Assembly (NCBI GenBank): GCA_031270395.1
Contig: JAISXU010000057.1
Coordinates: forward strand, 18,363-82,362
DNA length: 64,000 nucleotides
DNA from: Oscillospiraceae bacterium
Lineage (GTDB): Bacteria; Bacillota; Clostridia; Oscillospirales; Oscillospiraceae
Reading direction: 5' to 3'
Shown: positions 3,428 through 63,724 of the stretch, one piece after another
How the letters are laid out: each line of letters starts with the position of its first letter
Position numbering within the stretch: the first letter of the stretch is position 1
Program-made: the position numbers and the translations under genes
Notes under the pieces: generated by a model
Seen by the model: the letters and a program-made list of their open reading frames with translations, nothing else
What the model was told of the DNA's origin: nothing
Database searches by the model: none

Positions 3428-3582
3428 GATAATATCCGCGTTGCGGATATTATACGTTGCTGTCCCCATCGGCTCGCCGCTTCGCGGCAACCGCCGAGGG
3501 ACGACACAGTATACCATCGCCGATGCGCGTCTATGGTATACTGATTGCGATACTGCGGGACATTTCTACGGAAATGTCCCGC
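3428..3582. repeat. string of hairpin modules (family B-related intergenic repeat, copy B1)
   Basis: Consecutive palindromes: GATAATATCCGC-gtt-GCGGATATTAT, a GTCCCCATCGGCTCGCCGCTTCGCGGCAACCGCCGAGGGAC module, GTATACCAT..ATGGTATAC, and GCGGGACATTTC-tac-GGAAATGTCCCGC. The first two modules recur at 14401-14480. Confidence 0.5.
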
Positions 3583-6228: not shown

Positions 6229-7359
6229 ATGAAAAGACAGACCATGTATCTGCGGATGATAACGAGCTCGCTCGTCAGAAGGCGGTCGCGGATGATAGTC
6301 GCTCTGCTGGCGGTCGCTATCGGCGCGACTATCCTGTCGGGACTCGTGACGATATATTACGACATACCGCGCCAGATGGGACAGGAGTTCCGCTCCTACG
6401 GGGCTAACATGATACTCACGCCGTCCGGCGGCGGCAGGATTACCCCGGAGGACGCCGCGCGCGCCGCCGCGCTCATACCGCCGGAGAACGCCGTGGGCAT
6501 AGCGCCGTACAGATATGAGAATATAAAGATAAACGAGCAGCCGTTTATCGCGGCCGGCACGGAGCTCGAGGGCGCGCGCGGCGCAAGCCCGTACTGGTTC
6601 GTGTCGGGACGCTGGCCGGAGGAGACCGGCGAGGCGCTAATAGGGCAGGAGGTCGCGGATATCATCGGCATAGGGCCGGGCGGCGTTTTCACGCTCAGCG
6701 GGATAACCGCGGACGGCGACGGCTTCAAGGGCGAGTTCACGGTATCCGGCGTAGTGCAGACGGGCGGCGCCGAGGAGGCGTTCGTATTCATGTCTCTGGA
6801 GGCTCTCGGGGATATTGCCGGCGGGGGCGGTCTGGACGTAGTGGAATGCAGCGTGTCGGCGCCGCAGACGGAGCTCGAGGAGCTGGCGGAGCGCATAGGC
6901 GCCGGGACGCCTGGCGTCACGGCGAGACTTGTGCGGCGCGTCACGCAGTCCGAGGTGACGGTACTGTCGAAGCTGCAGGCGCTTGTCTACCTCGTTACGG
7001 CGGTCGTGCTTATGCTCACGATGATATGCGTCGCCACGACGATGATGGCCGTCGTAGCGGAACGCAGGCGCGAGATCGGCCTGAAAAAAGCGCTCGGCGC
7101 CCCTAACGGGGAGATTATCCGCGAATTTCTGGGCGAGGGCCTGCTTTTGGGCGGACTTGGCGGACTGCTCGGCGCGATACTCGGCTTCGTGTTCGCGCAC
7201 ACGGTCAGTATCAACGTGTTCGGACGCCCCATACTGTTCAAGCCGTTGCTCGTGCCCGTCACGATGCTGGTCTCGATAGCGGTCACGGGGCTGTCGTGCC
7301 TGCTGCCGGTGCGCCGCGCGACGGACGTCGATCCGGCGATAGTATTGCGCGGCGAGTAA
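6229..7359 (+). CDS. ABC transporter permease, FtsX/MacB-like (second copy)
   Basis: 376 aa with the same architecture as the previous gene (..VAERRREIGLKKALGA..). It starts 5 nt after that gene ends. Confidence 0.8.
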   Translation: MKRQTMYLRMITSSLVRRRSRMIVALLAVAIGATILSGLVTIYYDIPRQMGQEFRSYGANMILTPSGGGRITPEDAARAAALIPPENAVGIAPYRYENIKINEQPFIAAGTELEGARGASPYWFVSGRWPEETGEALIGQEVADIIGIGPGGVFTLSGITADGDGFKGEFTVSGVVQTGGAEEAFVFMSLEALGDIAGGGGLDVVECSVSAPQTELEELAERIGAGTPGVTARLVRRVTQSEVTVLSKLQALVYLVTAVVLMLTMICVATTMMAVVAERRREIGLKKALGAPNGEIIREFLGEGLLLGGLGGLLGAILGFVFAHTVSINVFGRPILFKPLLVPVTMLVSIAVTGLSCLLPVRRATDVDPAIVLRGE

Positions 7360-7580
7360 AAAATTTCGTTTGCACTCGTTTTTGCTCTCTCGTCCTTTTC
7401 GCCTGTGGCGAAAAGAATTTTTGCGAAGGAGTGCGCCCCGTGCGACGGAGCAAAAATTGTTATATTTCGCATGTTTCGGAAATTCATTTTCCGGAACATG
7501 CACTCTGCGAGCCGCGCACGGCGAGATCCAACCCTTCGTAACTCGTTTGTAAGCGCGAAGCGCTTGCAAACGAAATTAAT
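7360..7580 (+). repeat. family A modular intergenic repeat, short form (copy A1)
   Basis: Begins right after the stop at 7357-7359. Left terminus AATTTCGTTTGCA, hairpin CTTTTCGCC-tgt-GGCGAAAAG, hairpin CATGTTTCGGAAA..TTTCCGGAACATG, and a conserved core CTCTGCGAGCCGCGCACGGCGAGATCCAACCCTTCGTAACTCGTTTG. The terminal hairpin is CGTTTGTAAGCGC-gaa-GCGCTTGCAAACG, ending in AAATT, which is the inverse of the left terminus. Confidence 0.7.
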
Positions 7581-7595
7581 TCAAGAGGTATTGGT

Positions 7596-8786: not shown

Positions 8787-8845
8787 TATTAATTCGCACG
8801 ATATGTCGTGCCGAATTAATAGCGGGCAAGTTTTCGGCGTTAGCC

Positions 8846-8876
8846 AAAACGCAACCCAATGAAATGGTTGCGTTTT
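8846..8876. terminator. bidirectional intrinsic terminator between convergent genes
   Basis: AAAACGCAACC-caatgaaat-GGTTGCGTTTT. Perfect 11-bp stem with an A-run on one side and a T-run on the other. It lies between the + gene ending at 8786 and the - gene ending at 8975. Confidence 0.5.
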
Positions 8877-8974
8877 GGAGAGGACGAACCGCGTAGCGAG
8901 CGAGCTTTCGGCTTTAGCCGGAAACGAGACTTAGCGTAGCGCGTGAGGACGAGTCGCGGGGCGCGTCGCTTTTG

Positions 8975-14400: not shown

Positions 14401-14594
14401 GATATAATATCCGCAATACGGATATTATACGTGGCTGTCCCCATCGGCTCGCCGCTTCGCGGCAACCGCCGAGGGATGACACATTATATCACGCGCATGC
14501 GCCCGCTGTGCGGGCGCGCGCTTAAACTTTGAGCCGCGGCGCGGGACGCGCCGCATGGCGCTATATCAGAAATTGCTTTGCAATTTCTGATATA
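14401..14594 (-). repeat. family B multi-hairpin repeat (copy B2, inverted relative to B3/B4, with extra module)
   Basis: GATATAATATCCGC-aat-ACGGATATTATAC, then the GTCCCC..GGGA module shared with 3461-3504. This is followed by the reverse complement of the 26563-26697 unit (GCGCATGCGCCCGCTGTGCGGGCGCGCGC, GAGCCGCGGCGCGGGACGCGCCGCATGGC, TATATCAGAAATTGC-ttt-GCAATTTCTGATATA). Confidence 0.65.
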
Positions 14595-22870: not shown

Positions 22871-23265
22871 CCTTCATCTCTCCATTGTGTCAGTATTGTC
22901 GGTATCCCGCAAAACATGCGCACGACCTCGTCGGAGCCTCGCGCGAGGCGGGCGCACGCGCGTCCCACGGCCTCTCTCCACGCCCGCCGCTCCGGATCGG
23001 CGGGTACGACGCCGCACGAGACGTCGGTGCAGATGATTATCTTGTCCCGGAGCCCCGGGCGGAGCGCTTCGAGCTCCGCGTCCGGATCAAGCCCCGCCCG
23101 CAGAGCGTCAAATATCCACCGCTCGAGCTTGTATATCACCGGCTTGTCCGTATTGAGTCTCGCCCCCGCGTACTCGCAAAACCACACGTCTCCGGGCGCT
23201 AGGCCGAAACGCCCGAGCGCGTAATCAAGCTTTCCCTGATACTCCCCCCCGACGATCAGCTTCAC
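22867..23265 (-). CDS. CobU-related protein lacking the P-loop (132 aa)
   Basis: Track ORF 22867..23412. I trimmed the start to GTG 23265, which overlaps the cobU stop (GTGA). The C-terminal part IICTDVSCGVVPADPERRAWREAVGRACARLARGSDEVVRMFCGIP resembles the xSNEVGxGxVPxxxxxRxFRDxxGxxNQ segment of CobU. No GxxxxGK(S/T) is present. Confidence 0.5.
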   Translation of the reverse strand: MKLIVGGEYQGKLDYALGRFGLAPGDVWFCEYAGARLNTDKPVIYKLERWIFDALRAGLDPDAELEALRPGLRDKIIICTDVSCGVVPADPERRAWREAVGRACARLARGSDEVVRMFCGIPTILTQWRDEG

Positions 23266-23837
23266 GCGGCGCCTCCCGCGGGAAGAAGACCCTCTCGTCT
23301 CAGCCGCTCCGCTCCGCGGTGGACGACGGCGCCGGAAAACACTATCTCTATCACCGCGTCGCTCCGGGCCGCTACGGCTCTGTCGATCTGCGCGAGCGAC
23401 CGCCGAAACCACTCCGCGGGCCCGTCGTACAGCAAGCCGTCGGAATAGATGAAATCGGAGACCACCACAATATCGCGCACAGAGTCGAGCAGTTCTATCA
23501 TCTCTCCCGTTATCTTGTCCGCCGCGCCGTAATTTATCGCAGCTTTGCCGGGCGGGAACATCTCATTTGACAGGAGCGCCGTGAGGCTGTCGAGAAGAAA
23601 CGACGCGTCCGGGTCGCATTTATCCAAAATCTCCGGGATGTTCTCCGGCTGCTCCACCGTCTCAAAGCCCCAGCCGAGACGCTCGCGGCGGTGACGCAGT
23701 ATGCGTTCGTGGTCTTCGACGTCGCTGGGGCGCATCGTGGCGATATAGTAGAGTCCCGTCCTCCGCATGGCGTGCGCGAGCCGCTGCGCGTAGTACGATT
23801 TTCCGTTTTTGCAGCCTCCCGATATAAAAACCCTCAT
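23262..23837 (-). CDS. cobU: adenosylcobinamide kinase / adenosylcobinamide-phosphate guanylyltransferase
   Basis: Start is ATG 23837 (MRVFISGGCKNGKSYYAQ), which carries the P-loop GGCKNGKS. Also LYYIATM, HRRER..GW.T.E and FLLDSLTALLSNEMF, followed by the VVVSDFIYSDG segment. 191 aa. Confidence 0.75.
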   Translation of the reverse strand: MRVFISGGCKNGKSYYAQRLAHAMRRTGLYYIATMRPSDVEDHERILRHRRERLGWGFETVEQPENIPEILDKCDPDASFLLDSLTALLSNEMFPPGKAAINYGAADKITGEMIELLDSVRDIVVVSDFIYSDGLLYDGPAEWFRRSLAQIDRAVAARSDAVIEIVFSGAVVHRGAERLRREGLLPAGGAA

Positions 23838-23881
23838 CCGCGCCCCGCCCGCTTTCCACATAATGACGATCGCCTCACCCG

Positions 23882-23925: not shown

Positions 23926-24039
23926 CCATGATCTCGCGGCGCCGCGCGGCGCTTTGACGCCGCAACGCGACCTGACCCACACGCAACTTCATACTCTGTG
24001 AAGGCGATAGAAGCAGTGGCACGGGCAGGTCTTCCGACT

Positions 24040-24262
24040 CAGATCAGGAGTGTACCCGGATAAACACTCGCACACGGTTTTCACCTTCCCGGGAATGGTA
24101 TCCCAGTGGCCGGCGTGAGGCAGCTATACGTCACGCACATTAAAACCGTACTAATCATCACGGCAGCAGGACTGTTCGGGATTCGCACCCGGTTCCCTAT
24201 TCTCGCGCGGATACGCGCACCCGTCCACGGTTTTGGTTCCGGAGTCCCCTCCGACTTCCATG
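24040..24262 (-). promoter_or_regulatory. cobalamin (B12) riboswitch
   Basis: The minus strand contains AATAGGGAACCGGGTGCGAATCCCGAACAGTCCTGCTGCCGTGA (24201-24158). It also contains the B12-box region GCCGGCCACTGGGATACCATTCCCGGGAAGGTGAAAACCG (about 24113-24075). These match the conserved core of the cobalamin riboswitch class (Rfam RF00174). It sits upstream of cobU and the Btu-like genes. Confidence 0.8.
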
Positions 24263-26562: not shown

Positions 26563-26697
26563 TATCATAAATTGCTTTGCAATTTATGATAGATCGCCAT
26601 GCGGCGCGTCCCGCGCCGCGGCTCAAAGTTTAAGCGCGCGCCCGCACAGCGGGCGCATGCGCGTGATAAAATATCCGCTCTGCGGATATTTTATCAT
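26563..26697 (+). repeat. family B four-hairpin repeat (copy B3)
   Basis: TATCATAAATTGC-ttt-GCAATTTATGATA; GCCATGCGGCGCG-tcc-CGCGCCGCGGC; GCGCGCCCGC-acag-CGGGCGCATGCGC; GATAAAATATCCGC-tct-GCGGATATTTTATC. Nearly identical to 55217-55352. Confidence 0.7.
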
Positions 26698-26709
26698 ATC
26701 AGTCAATAG

Positions 26710-43496: not shown

Positions 43497-43743
43497 CTCG
43501 CTTCCGGCTAAAGCCGAAAGCTCGCCCGCTCCGTCGTGCGTCCTCTCCGAAGCGAACCCACTTCGTTGGGCTTCGTTTCGGTTTTGGACGCGGGGACGCA
43601 TAAAGCCGAAAGCTCGCTCGCTTCGCGGTTCGTCCTCTCCGAAACGAACCCACTTCGCCCCGGTTGCGATTCGGCTTTGGACGTAGTTCTCGTGCCACAG
43701 CGAAAAGGACGTAAGAGCGATAACGAGTGCAAACGAAATTATT
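43497..43743 (-). repeat. family A-related repeat (copy A6, inverted) containing a tandem ~91-nt duplication
   Basis: It ends with CCACAGCGAAAAGGACGTAAGAGCGATAACGAGTGCAAACGAAATTATT, the reverse complement of the family A left end. Internally there are two tandem units TAAAGCCGAAAGCTCGC..CGTCCTCTCCGAA(G/A)CGAACCCACTTCG..TTGGACG (about 43509-43590 and 43600-43683). Confidence 0.6.
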
Positions 43744-43855
43744 CTATAAACATCACAAATTGTTTATTCCCAAGCCGTCTTTTTTGTGGATAATAGATAG
43801 CGAGACCTGACGGAGCAGCGCGTCAGGCAATTTGTATGGAATAGGAGAATCGAAA

Positions 43856-49181: not shown

Positions 49182-49196
49182 AATTTTCCCGTGGGA

Positions 49197-49534
49197 ATAA
49201 TTTCGTTTGCACACGTTTTCGCTCTTACGTCCTTTTCGCTGTGGCGAAAAGAATTTTTGCGAAGGAGTGCGCCCTCGTCGGAGCGAACTACACTGCGCTA
49301 CACCGCCCTATGGGCGGTATCCGCTCTGTTGCGTTGCTCCTCCTCTCCGAAATGAACCCGCTCCGCTGGGCTTCATTTCGGCCCCAGACGGGAGATGCAG
49401 AGCAAAAATTGTTATATTTCGCATGTTTCGGAAATTCATTTTCCGAAACATGCACTCTGCGAGCCGCGCACGGCGAGATCCAACCCTTCGTAACTCGTTT
49501 GTTACGGCTCAAGCCGTGACAAACGAAATGATTC
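49197..49534 (+). repeat. family A modular intergenic repeat, long form (copy A2), left flank of the GRE gene
   Basis: Same architecture as 7360-7580 plus a ~110-nt insert module (..GAGCGAACTACACTGCGCTACACCGCCCTATGGGCGGTATCCGC..CCGAAATGAACCCGCTCCGCTGGGCTTCATTTCGG..). The terminal hairpin is CGTTTGTTACGGC-tcaa-GCCGTGACAAACG. Confidence 0.75.
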
Positions 49535-49543
49535 AATAAACGC

Positions 49544-49572
49544 TTGCAAACGTGCCGCTATTGGTATAGAAT
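49544..49572 (+). promoter_or_regulatory. promoter of the GRE gene
   Basis: TTGCAA (49544-49549), 17 nt spacer, TAGAAT (49567-49572). RBS AAGGGGGA, then ATG 49608. Confidence 0.4.
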
Positions 49573-49607
49573 AGATATATCTTAAAAAACAAGGGGGACT
49601 TTATATT

Positions 49608-52052
49608 ATGTATCAATTCAGGCCGTACACCGAGAGGATATGGAACTACCGGGAGAGAGTCCGCGACCGCGTGATTGAGGCGGATTCTGAGCGCACGCAG
49701 CTCATCGTCGAGGCGTGGAGACTCTACAAAAATGTGGTTCCGCTTATCCGCAATCCGCTCACTACCAAGTACATCACGGAGCGAATGACGATCCGCATTG
49801 AGGACGACGAGATCATTGTCGGAAACAAGTCCAAAAACTTCTGCGGCTCCTCCGGCGCGTTCTGGGCGATGTTCGTTGACATCGAGAACCTGTGGGAAAA
49901 GCGCGCCGACGGGAAGTATTACAACGATCCGGCGGCGGACGGCATAGCGCTGTGCGTCCACGAGGACGAGCTGAAGATCATCAAGCAGTACGCGAAGGAA
50001 TACCGCGAGACGAGCGATTCTGTCGTCGGCGACGCGTGGCTGCCGGAGGGTGCTAAGGAGTTCTTCGAGCTCGGCACGAACGACTACGGCGAGCCGGGCA
50101 GAATGGGCCCGATGACGCTCCGCTCGGGACATCTCACCCCCGGCTGGCAAAAGATCATCAACGTGGGTTATGGCGCTATCAAGAGGCAGGCGCAGGAGTG
50201 GATAGACGCGCACAAGGGCAGGATCATGGGCGACGACATGAAGAAATACATGTTCTATCAGGCCGCCGTCTACGAGTGCGAGGCCGCCTCGGCGTTCGTG
50301 CTGCGCTACGCCGACGCCGTCGCCGAAAAGGCGCTGACGTGTACCGACCCCAAGCGCAAGGCGGAGCTCGAAAAGATGGAGGCGGGCCTGCGGTGGATTT
50401 CCGAGAATCCCGCGCGCACGTACTGGGAGGCGTGCCAGGCCGCCCAGTTGTATCAGATTTTCCTGGGCATTGATTGCAGTATGCCCGCTCCGGCGTTCGG
50501 CCGCTTTGACCAATACACGTGGCCGCTCCTCGAAAAAGACCTCGCGGCGGGCACTATAACTATGGACGAGGCGCAGGAGATCACCGACGCGTTCTTCCTG
50601 AAGGTAAACTGCGCGTACGAGGGCGGCATCGGCGGTATAGCCAAGACGACGGGCATCGGCGTCTCGTACCAGCACACGACGATAGGCGGCGTCGATACCA
50701 AGACGGGCGAGGACGCCACAAACCCCGTCACATATATGGTGCTTGAGACGATGGGGCGTCTTGTGCTCCACGACCCCACCATCTCGCTCCGCATAAACAA
50801 GAATACCCCGGATGAGCTCTGGGGCTGCGCTCTGGAGACCTCCAAGCTCGTCGGCGGACTGCCGCTGTTCCAAAACGACGAGGTCATCATTCCCGGGCTT
50901 CAAAAAGAGCTCGGCTTTGAGCTCGAGGACGCGCGGGATTACTCCATCATCGGCTGCCAGGAGATCGTCGGCTCCGGTACGGACTACCCAGCTCCGAACG
51001 GCGTCGGCGCGAACCACGCGACGCTCTACTACGGCGTGATCCTCGACATGGCGATCAACAACGGCATCAACCCGCTGAACGGCAAACAGGCGCCGGCGCA
51101 CCTGTGCAAGGGTTACCTTTACGAGATGAACTCCATAGAGGAGGTACGTCAGGCGTACACCGATCTGTGCGTGTATCTGCACGACTGGTACGTCACTATC
51201 AACAACTACGCCGAGTACCTCATACCCTACAATATGCCTCAGCCCGGCCTGTCGATTTCAATGGTCGGCTGCATGGAGAAGGGCATGGACTGCGCCGAGG
51301 GCGGCTGCAAGTACAATTCCTACGGCGGCACGGCCACCGGTCTCGCGACCATAGCGGACAGTCTCGCCGCCATCAAGTATATGTGCTTTGACAAGAAGCT
51401 CGTCTCGACGCGCGAGCTGTACGACGCCGTCATGGCGAACTGGGAGGGCCACGAGCCCCTTCGCCAGAAGATACTCAACGAGGTGCCGCACTACGGAAAC
51501 GCCGACCCGTACGTTGACGAGGAGCTCGCGTTCGCCGTCAATCTGTACTACGATCTTTGCAAGAGATGTTCGTCGCAGCGCTCAAAGGTCTACAAGGCGG
51601 GCATGTACGGCGCGTCCGACCACGTCGCGCAGGGCTACCTGACGCCCGCGACGCCCGACGGACGCAAGTTCGGCGAGCCCATAGCCGACGCCATGAGCCC
51701 CGCGCAGAGCCGCGACGGCAACGGCCCGACGGCGGTGTTCATGTCCTCATGCTGCTTCGACCACACGAAGTTTATGGACGGCATAGCGCTGAATCTGCGT
51801 ATGCACCCGACGGTACTGAGCCGTGACGACGGCATCGAAAAGCTGCGCGATATGACGAAGGCGTACTTCGACAACGGCGGTCTTGAGTGCCAGTACAATG
51901 TCGTCGACACAAAAACGCTCCGCGCCGCGCAGACGGCGCCGACAAAGTACCGCGACCTCGTCGTGCGTATAGCCGGCTACTCGGCGTACTTCATCGAGCT
52001 GGGCACGGACCAGCAAAACGACATCATCTCGCGCAACGAAAACGTGATATAA
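49608..52052 (+). CDS. glycyl radical enzyme (PFL2/glycerol-dehydratase-like family), substrate unknown
   Basis: 814 aa. The C-terminal glycyl-radical motif is VVRIAGYSAYF (Gly790, nt 51975-51977). The single-Cys loop is IIGCQEIVG (Cys450/Glu452, nt 50955-50963), not the Cys-Cys pair of pyruvate formate-lyase. Confidence 0.9.
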   Translation: MYQFRPYTERIWNYRERVRDRVIEADSERTQLIVEAWRLYKNVVPLIRNPLTTKYITERMTIRIEDDEIIVGNKSKNFCGSSGAFWAMFVDIENLWEKRADGKYYNDPAADGIALCVHEDELKIIKQYAKEYRETSDSVVGDAWLPEGAKEFFELGTNDYGEPGRMGPMTLRSGHLTPGWQKIINVGYGAIKRQAQEWIDAHKGRIMGDDMKKYMFYQAAVYECEAASAFVLRYADAVAEKALTCTDPKRKAELEKMEAGLRWISENPARTYWEACQAAQLYQIFLGIDCSMPAPAFGRFDQYTWPLLEKDLAAGTITMDEAQEITDAFFLKVNCAYEGGIGGIAKTTGIGVSYQHTTIGGVDTKTGEDATNPVTYMVLETMGRLVLHDPTISLRINKNTPDELWGCALETSKLVGGLPLFQNDEVIIPGLQKELGFELEDARDYSIIGCQEIVGSGTDYPAPNGVGANHATLYYGVILDMAINNGINPLNGKQAPAHLCKGYLYEMNSIEEVRQAYTDLCVYLHDWYVTINNYAEYLIPYNMPQPGLSISMVGCMEKGMDCAEGGCKYNSYGGTATGLATIADSLAAIKYMCFDKKLVSTRELYDAVMANWEGHEPLRQKILNEVPHYGNADPYVDEELAFAVNLYYDLCKRCSSQRSKVYKAGMYGASDHVAQGYLTPATPDGRKFGEPIADAMSPAQSRDGNGPTAVFMSSCCFDHTKFMDGIALNLRMHPTVLSRDDGIEKLRDMTKAYFDNGGLECQYNVVDTKTLRAAQTAPTKYRDLVVRIAGYSAYFIELGTDQQNDIISRNENVI

Positions 52053-52383
52053 ATCATTTCGTTTGTCACGGCTGCGCCGTAACAAACGAGTTACGAGGGT
52101 TAGTTCTCGCCGTGCGCGGCTCGCAGAGTGCATGTTGGGGGAAATAAATTCCCCCAACATGCGAAATATGACAATTTTTGCTCCGCATCTCCCGTCTGGG
52201 GCCGAAATGAAGCCTAGCGGAGCGGGTTCATTTCGGAGAGGAGGAGCAACGCAACGGAGCGGATACCGCCCATAGGGCGGTGCAGCGCAGTGTAGTTCGC
52301 TCCGACGAGGACGCACTCTTTCGCAAAAATTCTTTTCGCCACAGGCGAAAAGGACGAGTGAGTGATAATGGGTACGAACACGA
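52053..52383 (-). repeat. family A modular intergenic repeat, long form (copy A3), inverted, right flank of the GRE gene
   Basis: Starts at the first nt after the GRE stop. It is the reverse complement of the 49197-49534 architecture, including the ~110-nt module. The variable hairpin here is CATGTTGGGGGAA-ataaa-TTCCCCCAACATG. Confidence 0.75.
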
Positions 52384-52485
52384 GGTTATATCACATGAAA
52401 GCATCGGTGAAAACGGCGTAACAATGGGCGGCGTTCAATTCAACGCGTTGGCGACATCAAGATATTAGAATTATGAATCGGGTGT

Positions 52486-55216: not shown

Positions 55217-55352
55217 TATATCATAAATTGCTATGCAATTTATGATATATCGCCATGCGGCGCGTCCCGCGCCGCGGCTCAAAGTTTAAGCGCGCGCCCG
55301 CACAGCGGGCGCATGCGCGCGATATAATATCCGCTCTGCGGATATTATATCA
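55217..55352 (+). repeat. family B four-hairpin repeat (copy B4) between convergent ENR genes
   Basis: TATATCATAAATTGC-tat-GCAATTTATGATATA; GCCATGCGGCGCG..CGCGCCGCGGC; GCGCGCCCGC-acag-CGGGCGCATGCGC; GATATAATATCCGC-tct-GCGGATATTATATC. The last arm contains the TAA stop of 55345..57315. Confidence 0.7.
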
Positions 55353-57315
55353 TACCGGCTATGAAATACGCCGCCTTAGTAGCCTCGCGTATGTTCCTCG
55401 GCGTCAGACAGTCGCCAATCTGGTGGAACTCGGGCGCGAGGAAGCGCAGCGCGTCCGCCTCGTCCCACAGGGGGCGCTGTCCGACTGCGTAAATAACGGT
55501 GTCGGCGGCAAACGTCACGCGCGCGCTGTCCGGCCCCTGCGCCAATACGCCGTCGCCGCCTATCTCCAATGTTCTCGTACCCAGCGCGAGCTCTACGCCC
55601 ATTTCGCGCAGCTTCACATCGAGCGCCAACCCGTGCAGTTGATTGCCTCCGTCGGACAGCGCGGGCATCAGCTCGACGACGGCGACGCTCCTGCCGAGCT
55701 CCGCCAGAAATATCGCAAGCTCCGTGCCGACGAGTCCGCCGCCCAGCACGACGACGCGTCCGCCGGCGAGTTCCGTGTTGAGATAGATGTCCTCGGCGCC
55801 GTACACGCGCGGGCCGTCGATCCCCACGATATCCGGCTTTACCGGGCGGGCGCCGAGCGCCGCTATGACGACTTGCGGCGCCACGTCGCGCACGAGCTCC
55901 GGCGTCGCCTCAACGCCGAGCCGTAGGTCTATATTCGCGCCCATGACCTTGTATTCCTGTAAATCGAGGTATTTTGAGAGCTTTTCCTTGAACGGGACGT
56001 CGCGCTCGCAGCGCAGCGCGCCGCCCAGCCGCTCCGATTTTTCGCAGAGTATGACGTCGTGCCCGCGCCGCGACGCCGTGAGCGCCGCCTGCATCCCGGC
56101 GACGCCGCCGCCCGCCACGAGTACGGTTTTCCGCTTTGACGCGGGCGCTATTCGCTCGGCCTGCAGCTCGACGCCTATCTCCGGGTTGACGGCGCAGCAG
56201 AACTGCCGGTTGGACAGCAGATTGGAAAAACAGGTGAAGCAGCGCATACACCGGACTATGTCGTCCCCGCGACCCGCGCGCGCCTTTGCCGGCATGTCCG
56301 GATCCGCTATGAGCTCGCGCGCGAGCTCCACGACGTCAGCGCGCCCGGAGGCGATGGTTTCCTCCATCAGCTCGGGCTCGGTGAACGCCCCCACGGTGGC
56401 CACGGGCGTCTTGACGTGTTTTTTTATCTCGGCGGCGAGATACGCGTTGCAGCCGTCGGGCAGAAACATCGACGGGTGAGTAATAACGAACGCGTCCTTT
56501 ACCTCGTGGTGTCCCGCCGACGCGTGTATGAGATCGACATGTCCGTCAAGCGCCATAGCTATCTTGACGCCCTCGTCCACACCGTAGCCGCGCGGATTCG
56601 CCTCCGTGGCGGACATGCGGAATTCGATCGGAAAGCCCTTGCCGCACCTCTCGCGTATGCGGTCGGCGACGGCAAGCGGGAAGCGCATCCTGTTCTCGAA
56701 CGAGCCGCCCCACATATCGTCGCGCGTGTTGACGAACGGCGACAGGAACTGGGACATAAGCCAGCCGTGTCCGCCGTGTATGAGCACCATACCGAAGCCG
56801 CACCGCTTGGCAAACAGCGCGGCCGAGGCGTACGCCTCTATGGTATCCTCAATGACGTCCGCGGTCATCGCCAGCACGCGTGTGCCGTCGCCGGACGCGT
56901 GCGCAATCTCGCCCCGCATCGACTCGACGGCGACGGGCCCGTAGACGGCGTTGCCGAGCTTCCCGGACTGCTCCGCGTACATGCCCGCGTGCTGCAGCTC
57001 CGCGACGGCGACGGCGCCGTATTGCGATATGCCCTCCGCCAGAGCGGTCAGCGCGCCGATAGACTCCGGATCATTGAGCGGTATATGGTTCTGCCCGCCC
57101 TTGCCGTGCTTTGAGTCCACAATGCACTCGCCCACAGCCACGGACGCGCAGCCGCCCTTCGCCTTGCGCGCGTAGTACGCCACCGCCTCCGCCGTCGGAA
57201 ATTCCTCGGCGGTAAGCTCCTGATAGCCCGTGGGCGCGCCGAATATGCGGTTGCGGAACAGCGTATTGCCAAGCCTTATAGGCGAGAAGAGATGCGGATA
57301 CTTACACTCGTACAT
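55345..57315 (-). CDS. Fe-S flavoenzyme, 2-enoate reductase/BaiH class (ENR paralogue 3)
   Basis: 656 aa. FSPIRLGNTLFRNRIFGAPTG, CMRCFTCFSNLLSNRQFCCAVNP, VLVAGGGVAGMQAA, VVVLGGGLVGTE. Closest by eye to paralogue 1. Confidence 0.85.
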   Translation of the reverse strand: MYECKYPHLFSPIRLGNTLFRNRIFGAPTGYQELTAEEFPTAEAVAYYARKAKGGCASVAVGECIVDSKHGKGGQNHIPLNDPESIGALTALAEGISQYGAVAVAELQHAGMYAEQSGKLGNAVYGPVAVESMRGEIAHASGDGTRVLAMTADVIEDTIEAYASAALFAKRCGFGMVLIHGGHGWLMSQFLSPFVNTRDDMWGGSFENRMRFPLAVADRIRERCGKGFPIEFRMSATEANPRGYGVDEGVKIAMALDGHVDLIHASAGHHEVKDAFVITHPSMFLPDGCNAYLAAEIKKHVKTPVATVGAFTEPELMEETIASGRADVVELARELIADPDMPAKARAGRGDDIVRCMRCFTCFSNLLSNRQFCCAVNPEIGVELQAERIAPASKRKTVLVAGGGVAGMQAALTASRRGHDVILCEKSERLGGALRCERDVPFKEKLSKYLDLQEYKVMGANIDLRLGVEATPELVRDVAPQVVIAALGARPVKPDIVGIDGPRVYGAEDIYLNTELAGGRVVVLGGGLVGTELAIFLAELGRSVAVVELMPALSDGGNQLHGLALDVKLREMGVELALGTRTLEIGGDGVLAQGPDSARVTFAADTVIYAVGQRPLWDEADALRFLAPEFHQIGDCLTPRNIREATKAAYFIAGMI

Positions 57316-59607: not shown

Positions 59608-59947
59608 ACAGTCGAACCCCTTTTTTGGAAATTACACGTTCAAGAGTGGGGCCGTCTTTTCTGTCCGCGAATATAGCGGACTTTTTGACAAATAAATCTG
59701 CGGAATGATCTAACTTGTCGTAAAAGTCGCCGCGTATTTCCATGGCAATATCCAATTCGCGCTTACTCACAGAATCCGGCACTATGACGCAGATATCAAG
59801 ATCGCTGTCTTTATGCGGATTTCCGTAAGCATATGAACCAAACAGATACATCGCCTCAGTGTTTGGTACAATGGCTAAAACGCTTTCTTTGACGATATCC
59901 AGCTTTTTTTGAATCTCCGGTGTTTCATACGGATACATAGGATGCAA
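59597..59947 (-). CDS. minimal nucleotidyltransferase (MNT antitoxin-type)
   Basis: 116 aa. LFGSYAYGNPHKDSDLDICVIV matches the GSxxxGxxxxxSDxD polymerase-beta NTase motif. Confidence 0.8.
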   Translation of the reverse strand: MHPMYPYETPEIQKKLDIVKESVLAIVPNTEAMYLFGSYAYGNPHKDSDLDICVIVPDSVSKRELDIAMEIRGDFYDKLDHSADLFVKKSAIFADRKDGPTLERVISKKGVRLYGK

Positions 59948-60042
59948 TTCCTTTCACAGGCCGTCGGCGACAGAGTGCCGCAACAAGAGAACCAACCCAG
60001 CGTCCCGTTCACAAGCGCTATGTGCTTGCAAACGGAGTTTTC

Positions 60043-60813: not shown

Positions 60814-60840
60814 AACACAGCACCTCACGTAGAATTATCT

Positions 60841-61047
60841 CGTATGTACTCGCTATCGCTCTCTCGTCCTTTTCGCCTGTGGCGAAAAGAATTTTTGTGA
60901 AGGAGTGCGTCCCGTGCGACTAAGCAAAAATTGTTATATCTCCGTCAGTAGATGGAATTCATTTCCATCTACTGACACTTTGCGAGCCGCGCACGGCGAG
61001 ATCCAACCCTCGTAACTCGTTTGTTACGACACAGTCTTAACAAACGA
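60841..61047 (+). repeat. family A modular repeat, short form (copy A4)
   Basis: ..CTCTCTCGTCCTTTTCGCCTGTGGCGAAAAGAATTTTTGTGAAGGAGTGCG... The variable hairpin is GTCAGTAGATGGAA-ttca-TTCCATCTACTGAC. Conserved core TTTGCGAGCCGCGCACGGCGAGATCCAACCCTCGTAACTCGTTTG. Terminal hairpin CGTTTGTTACGAC-aca-GTCTTAACAAACG. Confidence 0.65.
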
Positions 61048-61049
61048 CG

Positions 61050-62498
61050 TCACTCCGCCAGATTTATCGTTATCATCTTCTGCTCGGTGTACTCGAGGAC
61101 GCCCTGCTTGCCGCCCTCCTTGCCTATGCCGCTCTCGCGGACGCCGCCCCACGGCGCTTCCGCGCAGATGAGATTGTGCGCGTTGACCGAGAACGTGCCG
61201 ACGGTGAGGCGCTTGCCGAGCTTGAGCGCGTGGGCGATGTTGCGCGTCCAGATGGACGCCGTGAGACCGTACGTGTTGTCGTTGGCCAGGCGTATGACCT
61301 CGTCCTCGTCGCTCCACTTCGTCGTGACGGCAACCGGCCCGAATATCTCCTCGCGGTATATCTTCATCTCGGGCGTCACGTCCGTGAATATCGTCGGCTC
61401 AATGAATACGCCCTTGTCTCCCCAGCGCTTGCCGCCGTAGAGCAGCTTCGCGCCCTCCTTGACACCGGACTCAATGTAACCCATGACCTTGTTGAAATGC
61501 TCCGTGGAGACCATCGGCCCCATCGTCGTCTCTTTCTTTGTCGGGTCGCCGAGTACCTGATGCTTTGCCACGGTGAGCAGCTTTTCAATAAACTCGTCGT
61601 ACACGCTCTCGTGTATGTAATAGCGCCCCGGCGAGCCGCACGCCTGTCCGCAGTTGAAGAACTGATGGTGTCCGAGACTCTCTATGGCGAGGTCGAGGTT
61701 GGCGTCCGGGAAGATGATGGCGGGGTTCTTGCCGCCAAGCTCCATTATGACCTTCTTGATCGTCGGCGCGGCGGCCTGCATGATGGATACGCCGGTCTCC
61801 GTCGAGCCGGTGAAGCCCACGGCGTCAACTCCGGGGTGCGACGCCAGCGCGTTGCCGACTGACGAGCCGGGCCCTGTTATCACGTTGACGACGCCCTTTG
61901 GCAGCTCGTCCACGCTGTCCACGACCTCCGCGAGGAACAGTCCGACGAGCGAGTTTGTGGACGGCGGCTTGACGACGCACGTGTTGCCCGTGGAGATGGC
62001 CAGCGCTATCTTTTGACTCATGAGGAACAGCGGCAGATTCCACGGGATGATGAGCGCGCAGACGCCTATGGGTACGCGGTCGAGGCAGTACATGACGTTC
62101 GGCGAGCGCCCGGAATTGCTGATGAAATCTCCCATTATGCTGTGCGCGTAGGTGGCCGCCATCTCAAAGTTGCCGCAGGCGCCCATCGTCGGCCCGAAGC
62201 CGAGCTCCTCCGGCATACCGTGCTCCTGCGCGGCGAGGTGCGCCGCCTCCTTCGCGCGGGCGCGCAGCGCGGCGCCTATCTTGCGCAGAACGTTCGAGCG
62301 CTTCTCCTGCGTCAGACCCGACCACTCGGGGAACGCCGCGCGCGCCGCCGCGACCGCCCTGTCGATGTCCTCCGCTCCGGCGCACGGAACCTCCCCGAAC
62401 GTCTCGTCCGTGGACGGGTTATACGTGTTGATCGTCTTGCCCGATACCGCGTCTACCCACTGTCCGCCTATAAGCATTTTCTTTGTTATTGTGTCCAT
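61050..62498 (-). CDS. NAD(P)-dependent aldehyde dehydrogenase
   Basis: Start is ATG 62498 (MDTITKKMLIGGQWVD). MELGGKNP, catalytic-Cys region FFNCGQACGSPGR, EEIFGPV. 482 aa. Confidence 0.9.
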   Translation of the reverse strand: MDTITKKMLIGGQWVDAVSGKTINTYNPSTDETFGEVPCAGAEDIDRAVAAARAAFPEWSGLTQEKRSNVLRKIGAALRARAKEAAHLAAQEHGMPEELGFGPTMGACGNFEMAATYAHSIMGDFISNSGRSPNVMYCLDRVPIGVCALIIPWNLPLFLMSQKIALAISTGNTCVVKPPSTNSLVGLFLAEVVDSVDELPKGVVNVITGPGSSVGNALASHPGVDAVGFTGSTETGVSIMQAAAPTIKKVIMELGGKNPAIIFPDANLDLAIESLGHHQFFNCGQACGSPGRYYIHESVYDEFIEKLLTVAKHQVLGDPTKKETTMGPMVSTEHFNKVMGYIESGVKEGAKLLYGGKRWGDKGVFIEPTIFTDVTPEMKIYREEIFGPVAVTTKWSDEDEVIRLANDNTYGLTASIWTRNIAHALKLGKRLTVGTFSVNAHNLICAEAPWGGVRESGIGKEGGKQGVLEYTEQKMITINLAE

Positions 62499-62536
62499 GA
62501 CATGTACCTCCGATAAATAAATATAGATTGCACCCA

Positions 62537-62581
62537 TTTTCGTAACTCGTTTGTAACGACTTTAGCCGTTACAAACGAAAG
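62537..62581 (+). repeat. family A terminal-hairpin fragment (copy A5)
   Basis: CGTAACTCGTTTGTAACG-actttagc-CGTTACAAACGAAAG, between the ADH stop and the ALDH start. Confidence 0.45.
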
Positions 62582-63724
62582 TCAGTGCTCGTGCCCGCAG
62601 TCGCACGTCCTCTTGCGGTTGTCGATCGCGCCCTTGATGTCCTTGCCGAGACGCATGTTTTCAAGCGCCGCGTCGATGTCCTCCAGCTCATACGTCGCGG
62701 AGAGCATCTTCGAGAAATCGATCTCGTGGCGGTGCGCCTCGATGAATTTCAGCGCCTTGTAGAAGTGCTTCGCGTCGGCGGAGCCCGAGCCGATGACGCA
62801 GGCCTGCTTCTGCTGGAGCTTGTTCGGTATGAACTCCACGGGGTTGGGCGAGGTCTGGCCCATGACGAGGTACGTGGCGTCCTTGCACATAAAATCAAAA
62901 CCCTCGTTGAACGCGCTCTTTGCGCCGGCGGCCTCGATGATGAATTCCGCGCCGCGCCCCTCTGTGAGATCGCGGACGACCTGGACGCGCTCCTCGTGCG
63001 TCGTTTCCAGAATGTTCAGCGTCACGGAGGCGCCCCATTCCTTTGCCAGATTGAGCCGTTCCGCCGGGGCGCCTATCGTGACGACGCGCGACGCGCCCGA
63101 GTAGTATGCCAGCAGCGTGGAGTACAGGCCGATAGGCCCGCAGCCCTGCACGACGACGACATCGCCCGTGCCTATCGGGCTGTGCCTCTGCAAACGCTCA
63201 AAGCCCGACACCACGGTGCGGAACGCGCAGCCGACGCCGATAGCCTCCTCGTCGGTGACGCTCTCCGGCACAAGGACGATCTCCGTTTTAGGCGTCACCA
63301 TGACGTACTCGGCGAAGCCGCCGCGCAGATTGTCGGGATGGACAAACCCGTAGCCCGTGCCGAACGAGTTGCACATGTACGGCTTGCGCGCGACGCGGCA
63401 GTAGTAGCACTCGCCGCAGAACGGGTGCGCCCACATGATGCGGTCGCCCACCTTTAGCTCGCGGCATCCGATGTCGAGCTTGCGGTCGCCGCCTATGGCG
63501 ACTATCTCTCCCAGTGTCTCGTGTCCCTGCAATACCGGCGTGTTCGTCGGGATGGACAGCTCGTTGCGCGCCTGATGCACGTCCGTGCCGCATATGCCCG
63601 CCAGCAGTACGCGCGCGAGCACTCCGCCCTGTTCCAGCTCCGGAACGGGGACATCCTTGATCTCCAGCGGCTTGAAAGCCTCCGTAAGTACCGCCGCCTT
63701 GACCTTTGTCGGGATCTTGCTCAT
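62582..63724 (-). CDS. zinc-dependent medium-chain alcohol/polyol dehydrogenase
   Basis: GICGTDVH, GHETLGEIV, structural-Zn lobe CGECYYCRVARKPYMC, Rossmann segment VVVQGCGPIGL. 380 aa. Confidence 0.85.
   Translation of the reverse strand: MSKIPTKVKAAVLTEAFKPLEIKDVPVPELEQGGVLARVLLAGICGTDVHQARNELSIPTNTPVLQGHETLGEIVAIGGDRKLDIGCRELKVGDRIMWAHPFCGECYYCRVARKPYMCNSFGTGYGFVHPDNLRGGFAEYVMVTPKTEIVLVPESVTDEEAIGVGCAFRTVVSGFERLQRHSPIGTGDVVVVQGCGPIGLYSTLLAYYSGASRVVTIGAPAERLNLAKEWGASVTLNILETTHEERVQVVRDLTEGRGAEFIIEAAGAKSAFNEGFDFMCKDATYLVMGQTSPNPVEFIPNKLQQKQACVIGSGSADAKHFYKALKFIEAHRHEIDFSKMLSATYELEDIDAALENMRLGKDIKGAIDNRKRTCDCGHEH

Follow-up and report, generated by a model that had tools for sequence, protein, structure and literature searches.

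What kind of genetic entity is a repeat that is assembled from modules, folds into a string of hairpins and lies between genes in copy after copy? The question is raised by the element at positions 7358-7581 (copy A1) of a 64,000-nucleotide stretch of an Oscillospiraceae genome, positions 18363-82362 of contig C61, which is referred to below as the window. A1 is one of several copies in the window of a repeat that will be called family A. The window belongs to a metagenome-assembled genome (MAG) of 2.17 Mb, 95 contigs and 59% G+C (G000), and was compared with the other two genomes of the genus (G001 and G002). A preliminary description of the window had taken family A for a modular intergenic repeat resembling miniature inverted-repeat transposable elements (MITEs), with hairpins that covary and with a possible IS200/IS605-type transposase as its partner. 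The answer reached here is that family A is most probably a MITE moved in trans by an IS5/IS1182-like DDE transposase, whose own elements have the same GAATnATTTCGTTTG ends, that the ends of its copies, like those of the transposase-bearing elements, lie 14 bp upstream of promoter -35 hexamers much more often than expected by chance, and that it carries hairpins as its cargo.

Family A as a miniature transposon

By every sequence-level feature that could be tested, family A is a MITE, that is, a non-autonomous DDE transposon. Copies anchored on their ends are bounded by GAAT...ATTC, have a modal length of 224 bp and carry terminal inverted repeats (GAATnATTTCGTTTG / CAAACGAAATnATTC) of 15-16 nt, somewhat longer than the 13 nt proposed at first. 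A perfect 5-bp target duplication flanks 17 of 53 copies, and 22 of 47 in a second set drawn mostly from MAG Pcl387_bin43 (G002), as against 0.1-0.15% when the left and right flanks of different copies were paired. Moreover, an empty orthologous site exists: the copy at locus L108 of G002 reads ...TCT[CTTTA]-element-[CTTTA]CAGCC..., while contig C66 of G000 has the same DNA as a single stretch with no element. The copies are non-coding, being crossed by chance reading frames only, none of which is a called gene.

The family is not local to the window, as was established by a genome-wide search, and accounts for about 1% of the G000 genome. About 100 matches were obtained in this genome by BLAST, and 101 with an nhmmer profile built from 16 full copies; about 26 copies are full or nearly full, fragments are put at more than 100, and several contigs end within copies. 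Family A is restricted to one genus. With the full element, each genome of the genus yielded 20-34 or more matches and BLAST gave none in 38 other genomes of the family and order, and the terminal pattern GAATNATTTCGTTTG, with 40 exact matches in G000 and 0 for the reversed control, had at most 1 match in each of 300 other genomes of the order. An exact search with the 21-nt core through 185,579 species genomes returned 104 stretches, and those listed, one chance match aside, all came from the 'MAG: Oscillospiraceae bacterium' isolates Pcl387_bin43, Pcl387_bin149 and Nm470_bin31, with more than 100 core matches in the first. Divergence among copies is about 20% from one species to another and no more than about 10% inside a single species. 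As regards A1 itself, an orthologue of its site was sought in G001 and G002, where the flanking operon was not found at the DNA level; no public sequencing run with this organism was found either, at most 5% of words being shared, from a conserved ATPase.

Several size classes have these ends in common, with end-to-end distances of 47, about 119, 224, 249 and 320-340 nt. The 47-nt form is a bare palindrome, consisting of two 22-nt ends and a 3-nt loop. A 119-nt MITE subfamily in G002 (L078 3092-3210 and L127 861-979) has the same terminal inverted repeats around an unrelated, A/T-rich interior, and a 249-250-nt subfamily makes up 14 of the 50 full elements sampled.

The partner transposase

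The window contains no transposase, as had been stated from the start, and none was found in G000 between pairs of the inverted repeats, the pairs 1.3-4.3 kb apart holding ordinary genes. Family searches of the three genus genomes gave no rve, IS256, Tn3 or ISL3 transposases and three DDE_Tnp_1 genes, two of them in G002 and one on contig C86 of G000. The two in G002, which belong to an IS1182 and an IS1634 element, were rejected as partners, each element having its own, unrelated inverted repeats, and the orphan inverted repeats in 526 kb of G002, considered as possible insertion sequences, turned out to be palindromes, members of the 119-nt subfamily or remnants.

The C86 element (L056 1216-2988) is a single-copy sequence of 1773 bp, situated 27 nt upstream of a gene start, with an intact frame of 417-429 amino acids which is the sole DDE_Tnp_1 gene of the MAG. 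It has GGAATAATTTCGTTTGCACCC 190 nt past the transposase stop and a diverged GAATAAATCTCG end 315 nt before the start, and the first 25 nt of the MITE left end match its transposase-distal end. In Pfam, the protein is matched by DDE_Tnp_1 (70 bits, against a cut-off of 23) and by DUF772; among NCBIfam models its best match is IS1182 (NF033551), at 130 bits and below the curated 270-bit cut-off, and the IS5 models score 60 bits or less (cut-offs 110-275). Relatives of this transposase are numerous (646, with 60-80% identity) and lie mostly on metagenome contigs of 1.5-2.5 kb. When 16 of their loci, representing 14 distinct insertion sites, were fetched, both ends (GAATAATTTCGTTTG and CAAACGAAATTATTC) were present at 7 of the 14 sites, with element lengths of 1650-1834 bp; at the other 7 a single end lay within the available DNA, two of these sites belonging to one and the same element, cut off on the left. 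A single Logan contig consists of a complete 1739-bp element and nothing else. As judged from sequence, these elements of 1.65-1.83 kb, which encode a DDE_Tnp_1 protein of 420-430 amino acids and have ends as in the MITE, are the autonomous family whose ends family A carries, and it is their transposase that would mobilise family A in trans.

Spacing of the insertions to promoters

The property that escaped the preliminary description is that insertion is anchored on promoters, with the element ends at a fixed distance of 14 bp from -35 hexamers, on their upstream side. Of 35 right ends, 22 are co-directional with the gene that follows and have a TTGACA-17-TATAAT promoter immediately beyond them. 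The other 13 point towards the 3' end of a convergent gene, at 9 nt or less from the stop codon in 10 of them; in the remaining three the nearest called gene is 0.4-1.4 kb away. A promoter-like site is found within 16 nt of at least one end in 38 of 54 elements, and of both ends in 9, the background being such that about 10% of random intergenic 70-mers score as high. In the younger copies of G002, the -35 hexamer starts exactly 14 nt past the terminal C in 25 of 41 scored promoters, and TTG stands at offset 14 in 24 of 95 flanks versus about 2 at any other offset. The same distance separates the 47-nt palindromes from their -35 hexamers, on both sides in several cases, where they lie between divergent promoters, and a full element has inserted beside one such palindrome, duplicating the same five bases (TTCGG). 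Furthermore, the spacing is reproduced by autonomous copies from unrelated metagenomes: the transposase-distal end could be identified in 12 of them, and in 9-10 of the 12 a -35-like hexamer stands at +14, with a -10 box 17 nt beyond it; one element has the +14 spacing at two different sites. The promoter is host DNA, since the intervening 14 nt are unrelated between sites, and the empty site on C66 already has TTGACA. Relative to the transcription start, the 5-bp target occupies about -49 to -45.

Two further observations concern individual sites. The GAATAA terminus has TAA in one frame, and right ends overlap or lie near convergent stop codons, for example at 52051 and 61050-61055 of the window. 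Beyond the window, at about 90640-90766 of C61, G000 and G002 (L137) have different family members at one promoter-proximal site, a short GAATAATTTCGTCTGCAC... remnant in the former and a 249-nt element with the duplication TTTCC in the latter, which suggests that one site has been used repeatedly.

A promoter association could also result from selection and not from target choice, if insertions were near-random in intergenic DNA and survived only where they bring the A/T-rich terminus, or some protein that binds it, to about -50, so that the element serves there as an UP-like, insulator or regulator-binding module. The terminus is the same at both ends and either can face a promoter, insertions in the 89% coding fraction must be purged, purifying selection acts on the hairpins, and the spacing is variable in G000, all of which would suit this explanation; in fact, survivorship must contribute to the absence of genic insertions. 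Nevertheless, selection is unlikely to be the source of a spacing which is precise to the single nucleotide in young copies with perfect duplications, which recurs in the autonomous elements just mentioned, and which goes together with the repeated use of one site at the TTCGG palindrome, when any given offset is expected for only about 1% of random intergenic insertions. Because the spacing is exact to one base, the copies concerned are young and the pattern recurs in hosts that are unrelated, we infer that the 14-bp distance reflects target choice by the transposase, selection after random insertion being less likely. The enzyme would be guided by the -35 region itself or by RNA polymerase sitting on it, and could either recognise TTGACA directly or contact the promoter-bound polymerase.

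A broader and more tentative proposal is that the transposase family as a whole may be a promoter-homing bacterial DDE system, reading the -35 hexamer or the bound sigma-70/alpha-CTD and integrating at about -49, with its miniatures behaving as mobile insulators or leaders. In a limited search of the literature, no description was found of a bacterial insertion sequence homing to promoter -35 elements.

The hairpin cargo

The cargo would consist of five successive hairpins, with the sense strand under constraint. An alignment of 50 full copies from three species was analysed with RNAalifold and by counting pairs on five local helices. Pairing holds in 99.6% of 2349 helix cells, and 21 of 47 pairs have changed on both sides, compared with 12.7 +/- 1.4 in shuffled alignments (0 of 500 reach the observed value) and 2-5 with slid partners. 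In the variable hairpin, 11 of the 14 pairs have compensated double changes; the terminal hairpin has 6 such pairs of 14, and helix 1, which is 100% paired, has 2 pairs with double changes. The compensatory change that had been noticed among the copies of the window is therefore genuine, and it points to a constraint on a single strand, be it RNA or single-stranded DNA. This constraint is also biased in strand, G·U or U·G occurring in 16 helix columns and A·C in 2, and the sense strand being more stable than its complement by an average of 4 kcal/mol, an advantage seen in 39 of the 50 copies and owed mainly to G002; therefore, the strand on which it acts is the sense strand, in the form of RNA or of single-stranded DNA.

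The stems might instead be kept by a mechanism at the DNA level, either hairpin-templated repair or template switching in quasi-palindromes, or the exchange of cassettes between subfamilies, with no need for selection on RNA. In fact, every module is a palindrome, some variants of the variable hairpin differ at many positions together, like swapped cassettes, and the subfamilies recombine, mosaic combinations of hairpin variants being found. Templated correction, however, predicts perfect Watson-Crick arms and no strand bias, whereas stepwise series of A-U, G·U and G-C pairs are also present and the excess of G·U over A·C columns is that counted with singletons included. Since neither a constraint on double-stranded DNA nor templated palindrome repair would produce the strand bias, both are disfavoured, and such an origin of the stems is improbable.

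The order of the parts suggests what the cargo may do. Hairpin 1, with a 9-bp stem of which 5 pairs are G-C, is followed by AATTTTTG and looks like an intrinsic (Rho-independent) terminator; the T-tract also pairs with GCAAAAATT, closing hairpin 2. After the T-tract come the conserved TGnTATAT motif, the variable hairpin, the conserved core with its 4-bp hairpin and, finally, the terminal hairpin. The TGnTATAT motif, which is strong in A1 and A3 (TGTTATATT) and weaker elsewhere, was not called by a two-hexamer promoter scan and may be a candidate internal promoter. On the reading favoured here, hairpin 1 and its T-tract would stop read-through entering from the left, TGnTATAT would start a transcript that opens with the variable hairpin and leaves through the right end, and each copy could work as a portable terminator or insulator, possibly also as a promoter-leader, ahead of a host promoter or gene.

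The same features might be taken to mean that the repeats are primarily structured RNA genes or cis-regulatory RNA leaders, transcribed from TGnTATAT or from upstream genes, and that their mobility is incidental. The strong compensated covariation, the G·U bias and the stability of the sense strand agree with this, the unpaired core and loops are conserved as well, and A1 lies 15 nt before a start codon with no other promoter. Nevertheless, covariation alone is no proof of RNA function, given that propagation from structure-competent source copies gives the same result, and no copy has an Rfam match at gathering score, only sub-threshold noise being returned at E < 1. Moreover, the inverted repeats, the target duplication, the empty site and the ends in common with a transposase-bearing element explain the copies; most of them lie upstream of promoters or face a divergent gene, so that no host transcript enters them in sense, and no terminator is found past the last hairpin. 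A primary role as RNA is thus considered quite unlikely.

As to the IS200/IS605-type partner suggested earlier, the idea that these are REP/REPIN-like palindromes moved through single-stranded DNA by a Y1 (IS200/IS605 or RAYT) transposase, to which the subterminal hairpins, the strand-specific pairing signature and the perfect 47-nt palindromes would lend themselves, is scarcely tenable, since the Y1 gene (PF01797) is absent from G000 and G001 and occurs singly in G002, family A possesses genuine terminal inverted repeats and a 5-bp duplication, both of them foreign to Y1 elements, and the elements that share its ends are of the IS5/IS1182-like DDE type.

Observations at odds with a promoter-targeted MITE

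The reading of family A as a MITE placed upstream of promoters by a DDE transposase has to be weighed with a number of points that speak against it. Regarding transposition, about half of the MITE copies have no 5-bp duplication, and just 1 of the 7 autonomous copies with both flanks has one. The autonomous copies place the transposase-downstream end by the promoter, while the MITE uses either end (right to left about 2:1), and it is the MITE left end which resembles, beyond the inverted repeat, the transposase-distal end of the G000 copy. Regarding the target, about 30% of elements are without a promoter at either end, some copies lie inside an operon (A1, between permease and ATPase) or abut stop codons, the autonomous copy of G000 stands 27 nt ahead of a start codon, the offsets in G000 are looser, scattered over 0-14 nt, and survivorship could add to the promoter association, genic insertions being lost. 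Regarding the cargo, the candidate internal promoter lacks a -35, and in most G000 copies the last base of its -10 is C. Finally, all three genomes are fragmented MAGs with many contig breaks inside copies.

Copies and neighbouring repeats in the window

The features of the window are collected in Table 1. All the family A copies of the preliminary description are present, with coordinates that have been refined, and so are the motifs quoted in it, namely the left terminus, the hairpin CTTTTCGCC-tgt-GGCGAAAAG, the core and the variants of the variable and terminal hairpins. Its assignment of variable hairpins was off by one copy: CATGTTTCGGAAA is found in the copies at 7358 and 49195, CATGTTGGGGGAA in that at 52051 and GTCAGTAGATGGAA in that at 60832, and the copy at 43497-43743 is without a variable hairpin. 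The piece at 62.5 kb, previously described as a lone terminal hairpin, is an internally deleted copy. The view of family A as a modular, MITE-like intergenic repeat has held; its 'optional ~110-nt module' has not, for this is a 127-nt unit of a separate repeat family, M, inserted in the hairpin-2 loop of the long copies and bracketed there by a GGAGC/AGAGC duplication. What had been listed as a module fragment near 8878-8970 is likewise a family-M unit, at 8844-8970.

Table 1. Family A copies, parts of copy A1 and other features of the window (nt positions in the window).
Feature	Coordinates	Strand	Basis
A1, full element, 224 nt	7358-7581	+	profile search, alignment
A1, left terminal inverted repeat AAAAAATTTCGTTTGC; family consensus GAATAATTTCGTTTGC	7358-7373	+	
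A1, hairpin 1, CTTTTCGCC-tgt-GGCGAAAAG, then AATTTTTGC; intrinsic-terminator-like on the sense strand	7395-7424	+	terminator scan; helix 1
A1, hairpin 2, stem AATTTTTGC/GCAAAAATT; loop is the family-M module site in long copies	7416-7458	+	
A1, TTGTTATAT(T), extended -10-like (TGnTATATT), candidate internal outward promoter	7457-7465	+	read from sequence; conserved in alignment
A1, variable 14-bp hairpin, conserved loop TTCAT	7469-7501	+	11/14 pairs with compensatory double changes
A1, conserved core with short hairpin GCCG-cgca-CGGC (alternative GCGC-cgca-GCGC)	7502-7542	+	helix 4
A1, terminal hairpin, 14 bp; 3' arm is the right terminal inverted repeat	7543-7581	+	helix 5, 6 pairs with double changes
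Free-standing family-M unit	8844-8970	+	
Family A left-end fragment (43687-43744) and two tandem family-M units; without variable hairpin, core and right end	43497-43744	-	
A3, 340 nt, with 127-nt family-M module at 49275-49401	49195-49534	+	
A4, long element with M module; left inverted repeat degenerate	52051 to ~52391	-	
Degenerate right-half fragment, weak, additional to the earlier list	59941-60040	+	E = 4e-5
A5, 224 nt; right terminus decayed, overlapping the stop codon of the convergent gene 61050-62537	60832-61055	+	
Internally deleted copy, about 62 nt; left-end remnant GATTGCACCCATTTTCG fused to terminal hairpin	~62520 to 62583	+	
Family M, units in the window	8844-8970; 43497-43686; 49275-49401; 52180-52310 (approx.)		
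Family B	3429-3516; 14404-14594; 26563-26698; 55219-55354		
Cobalamin riboswitch (RF00174), upstream of gene 23262-23861	24007-24238	-	79.5 bits

A1 starts within the TAA stop of an FtsX-type permease gene, and 15 nt separate its right end from the ATG of an ABC ATPase gene; no host promoter lies in between. The right end of A3 lies 10 nt upstream of TTGCAA, the -35 of the promoter of a glycyl-radical-enzyme gene, and the right terminus of A4 overlaps the TAA stop (52050-52052) of the same gene. This gene (49608-52052) is consequently bracketed by A3 and A4 (49195-52391), in inverted orientation and with their right ends facing it; a composite transposon made of the two copies and the gene is unsupported, and two independent insertions, that of A3 at the promoter and that of A4 at the stop codon, account for the arrangement.

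Two other repeats share this genome with family A. Family M, a structured repeat distinct from family A and about 120 nt long, has the core ...GTTCGTCCTCTCCGAAACGAACCC..., the hairpin GCTTCCGGCTAAAGCCGAAAGC and compensated stems of its own; there are about 45 free copies of it in the genome, often in tandem. Family B, whose copies number at least 25 and measure about 140 nt, is formed by two palindromes, TGATATAATATCCGC-n4-GCGGATATTATATCA, which contains a perfect extended -10 (TGnTATAAT), and TATCATAAATTGC-n3-GCAATTTATGATA. Its copies often begin at the -10 of a promoter, and one of them (L056 2673-2813) separates the start codon of the G000 transposase gene from the inverted repeat.

Comparison with known systems

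Among known repeats, the Correia elements of Neisseria (CREE/NEMIS) are short, abundant intergenic MITEs, often adjacent to genes, with inverted repeats, RNA hairpins and terminator- or promoter-like signals; like family A, they are structured intergenic MITEs with regulatory potential. They have a TA duplication and inverted repeats of 26 bp, and to our knowledge neither a transposase nor a fixed spacing to -35 hexamers has been reported for them, whereas in family A the duplication is of 5 bp and a DDE partner has been identified; there is no sequence similarity between the two. In Streptococcus pneumoniae, BOX is modular (boxA/B/C) and RUP is a MITE tied to the resident IS630-Spn1, with TA as its target. 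We know of no inverted repeats, target duplication or transposase for BOX, nor of any report that BOX or RUP homes to promoters. Family A resembles BOX in its optional modules, but the module in its case belongs to another repeat family and sits inside a hairpin loop. It is an additional MITE family, sharing no sequence with Correia, RUP or BOX elements. With REP/BIME and REPIN-RAYT systems it has in common the abundance of extragenic palindromes, of which the bare 47-nt form is an example; REPs, however, have no target duplication and are tied to Y1 transposases, and neither is true of family A.

Insertion at a fixed distance has its own precedents. Tn7 and CAST elements insert in this manner from glmS or a protospacer, by means of TnsABC with TnsD or Cascade. 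The IS1202 family does so at dif (PMC10132070), and IS1111/IS110 elements at REP or attC (PMC11187229). All of these resemble family A in the set distance and orientation from a recognised chromosomal signal. They differ from it in that the signals are XerC/D sites, RNA-guided sites, glmS or a protospacer and the enzymes are DEDD or TnsABC, whereas here the enzyme is of the DDE_Tnp_1 type and the signal is a generic promoter element, of which each genome contains hundreds.

The partner transposase is closest in architecture, DUF772 with DDE_Tnp_1 (and DDE_Tnp_1_6), to the IS1182 family, a member of which, IS1272 of staphylococci, has been reported to target inverted-repeat structures, often without target duplications (PMC5678879). 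Most autonomous copies found here also lack duplications. Nevertheless, the score of 130 versus 270 bits, the different ends and the 5-bp duplications of the MITE set the partner apart from IS1182/IS1272, as does its target, which is a position 14 bp upstream of -35 hexamers and not a hairpin.

Significance

A new MITE family in an uncultured gut bacterium would, alone, be routine. The unusual point is an insertion position set to the nucleotide by a generic promoter element. Should the transposase read the -35 region or the polymerase bound at the promoter, it would be a bacterial counterpart of the promoter-tethered Ty3 and P elements of eukaryotes, it would follow a 'safe harbour' strategy that spares genes, and it would offer a natural route for placing regulatory cargo upstream of many promoters, which could become a tool for promoter-proximal insertion. 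In addition, the strand-specific covariation of family A makes it a clean case for asking if selection on MITE hairpins works via RNA. For the organisms themselves, the proposal would mean, if true, that the miniatures spread a cassette resembling a terminator, hairpins and a promoter ahead of hundreds of genes, and that they would be able to rewire expression across the genus.

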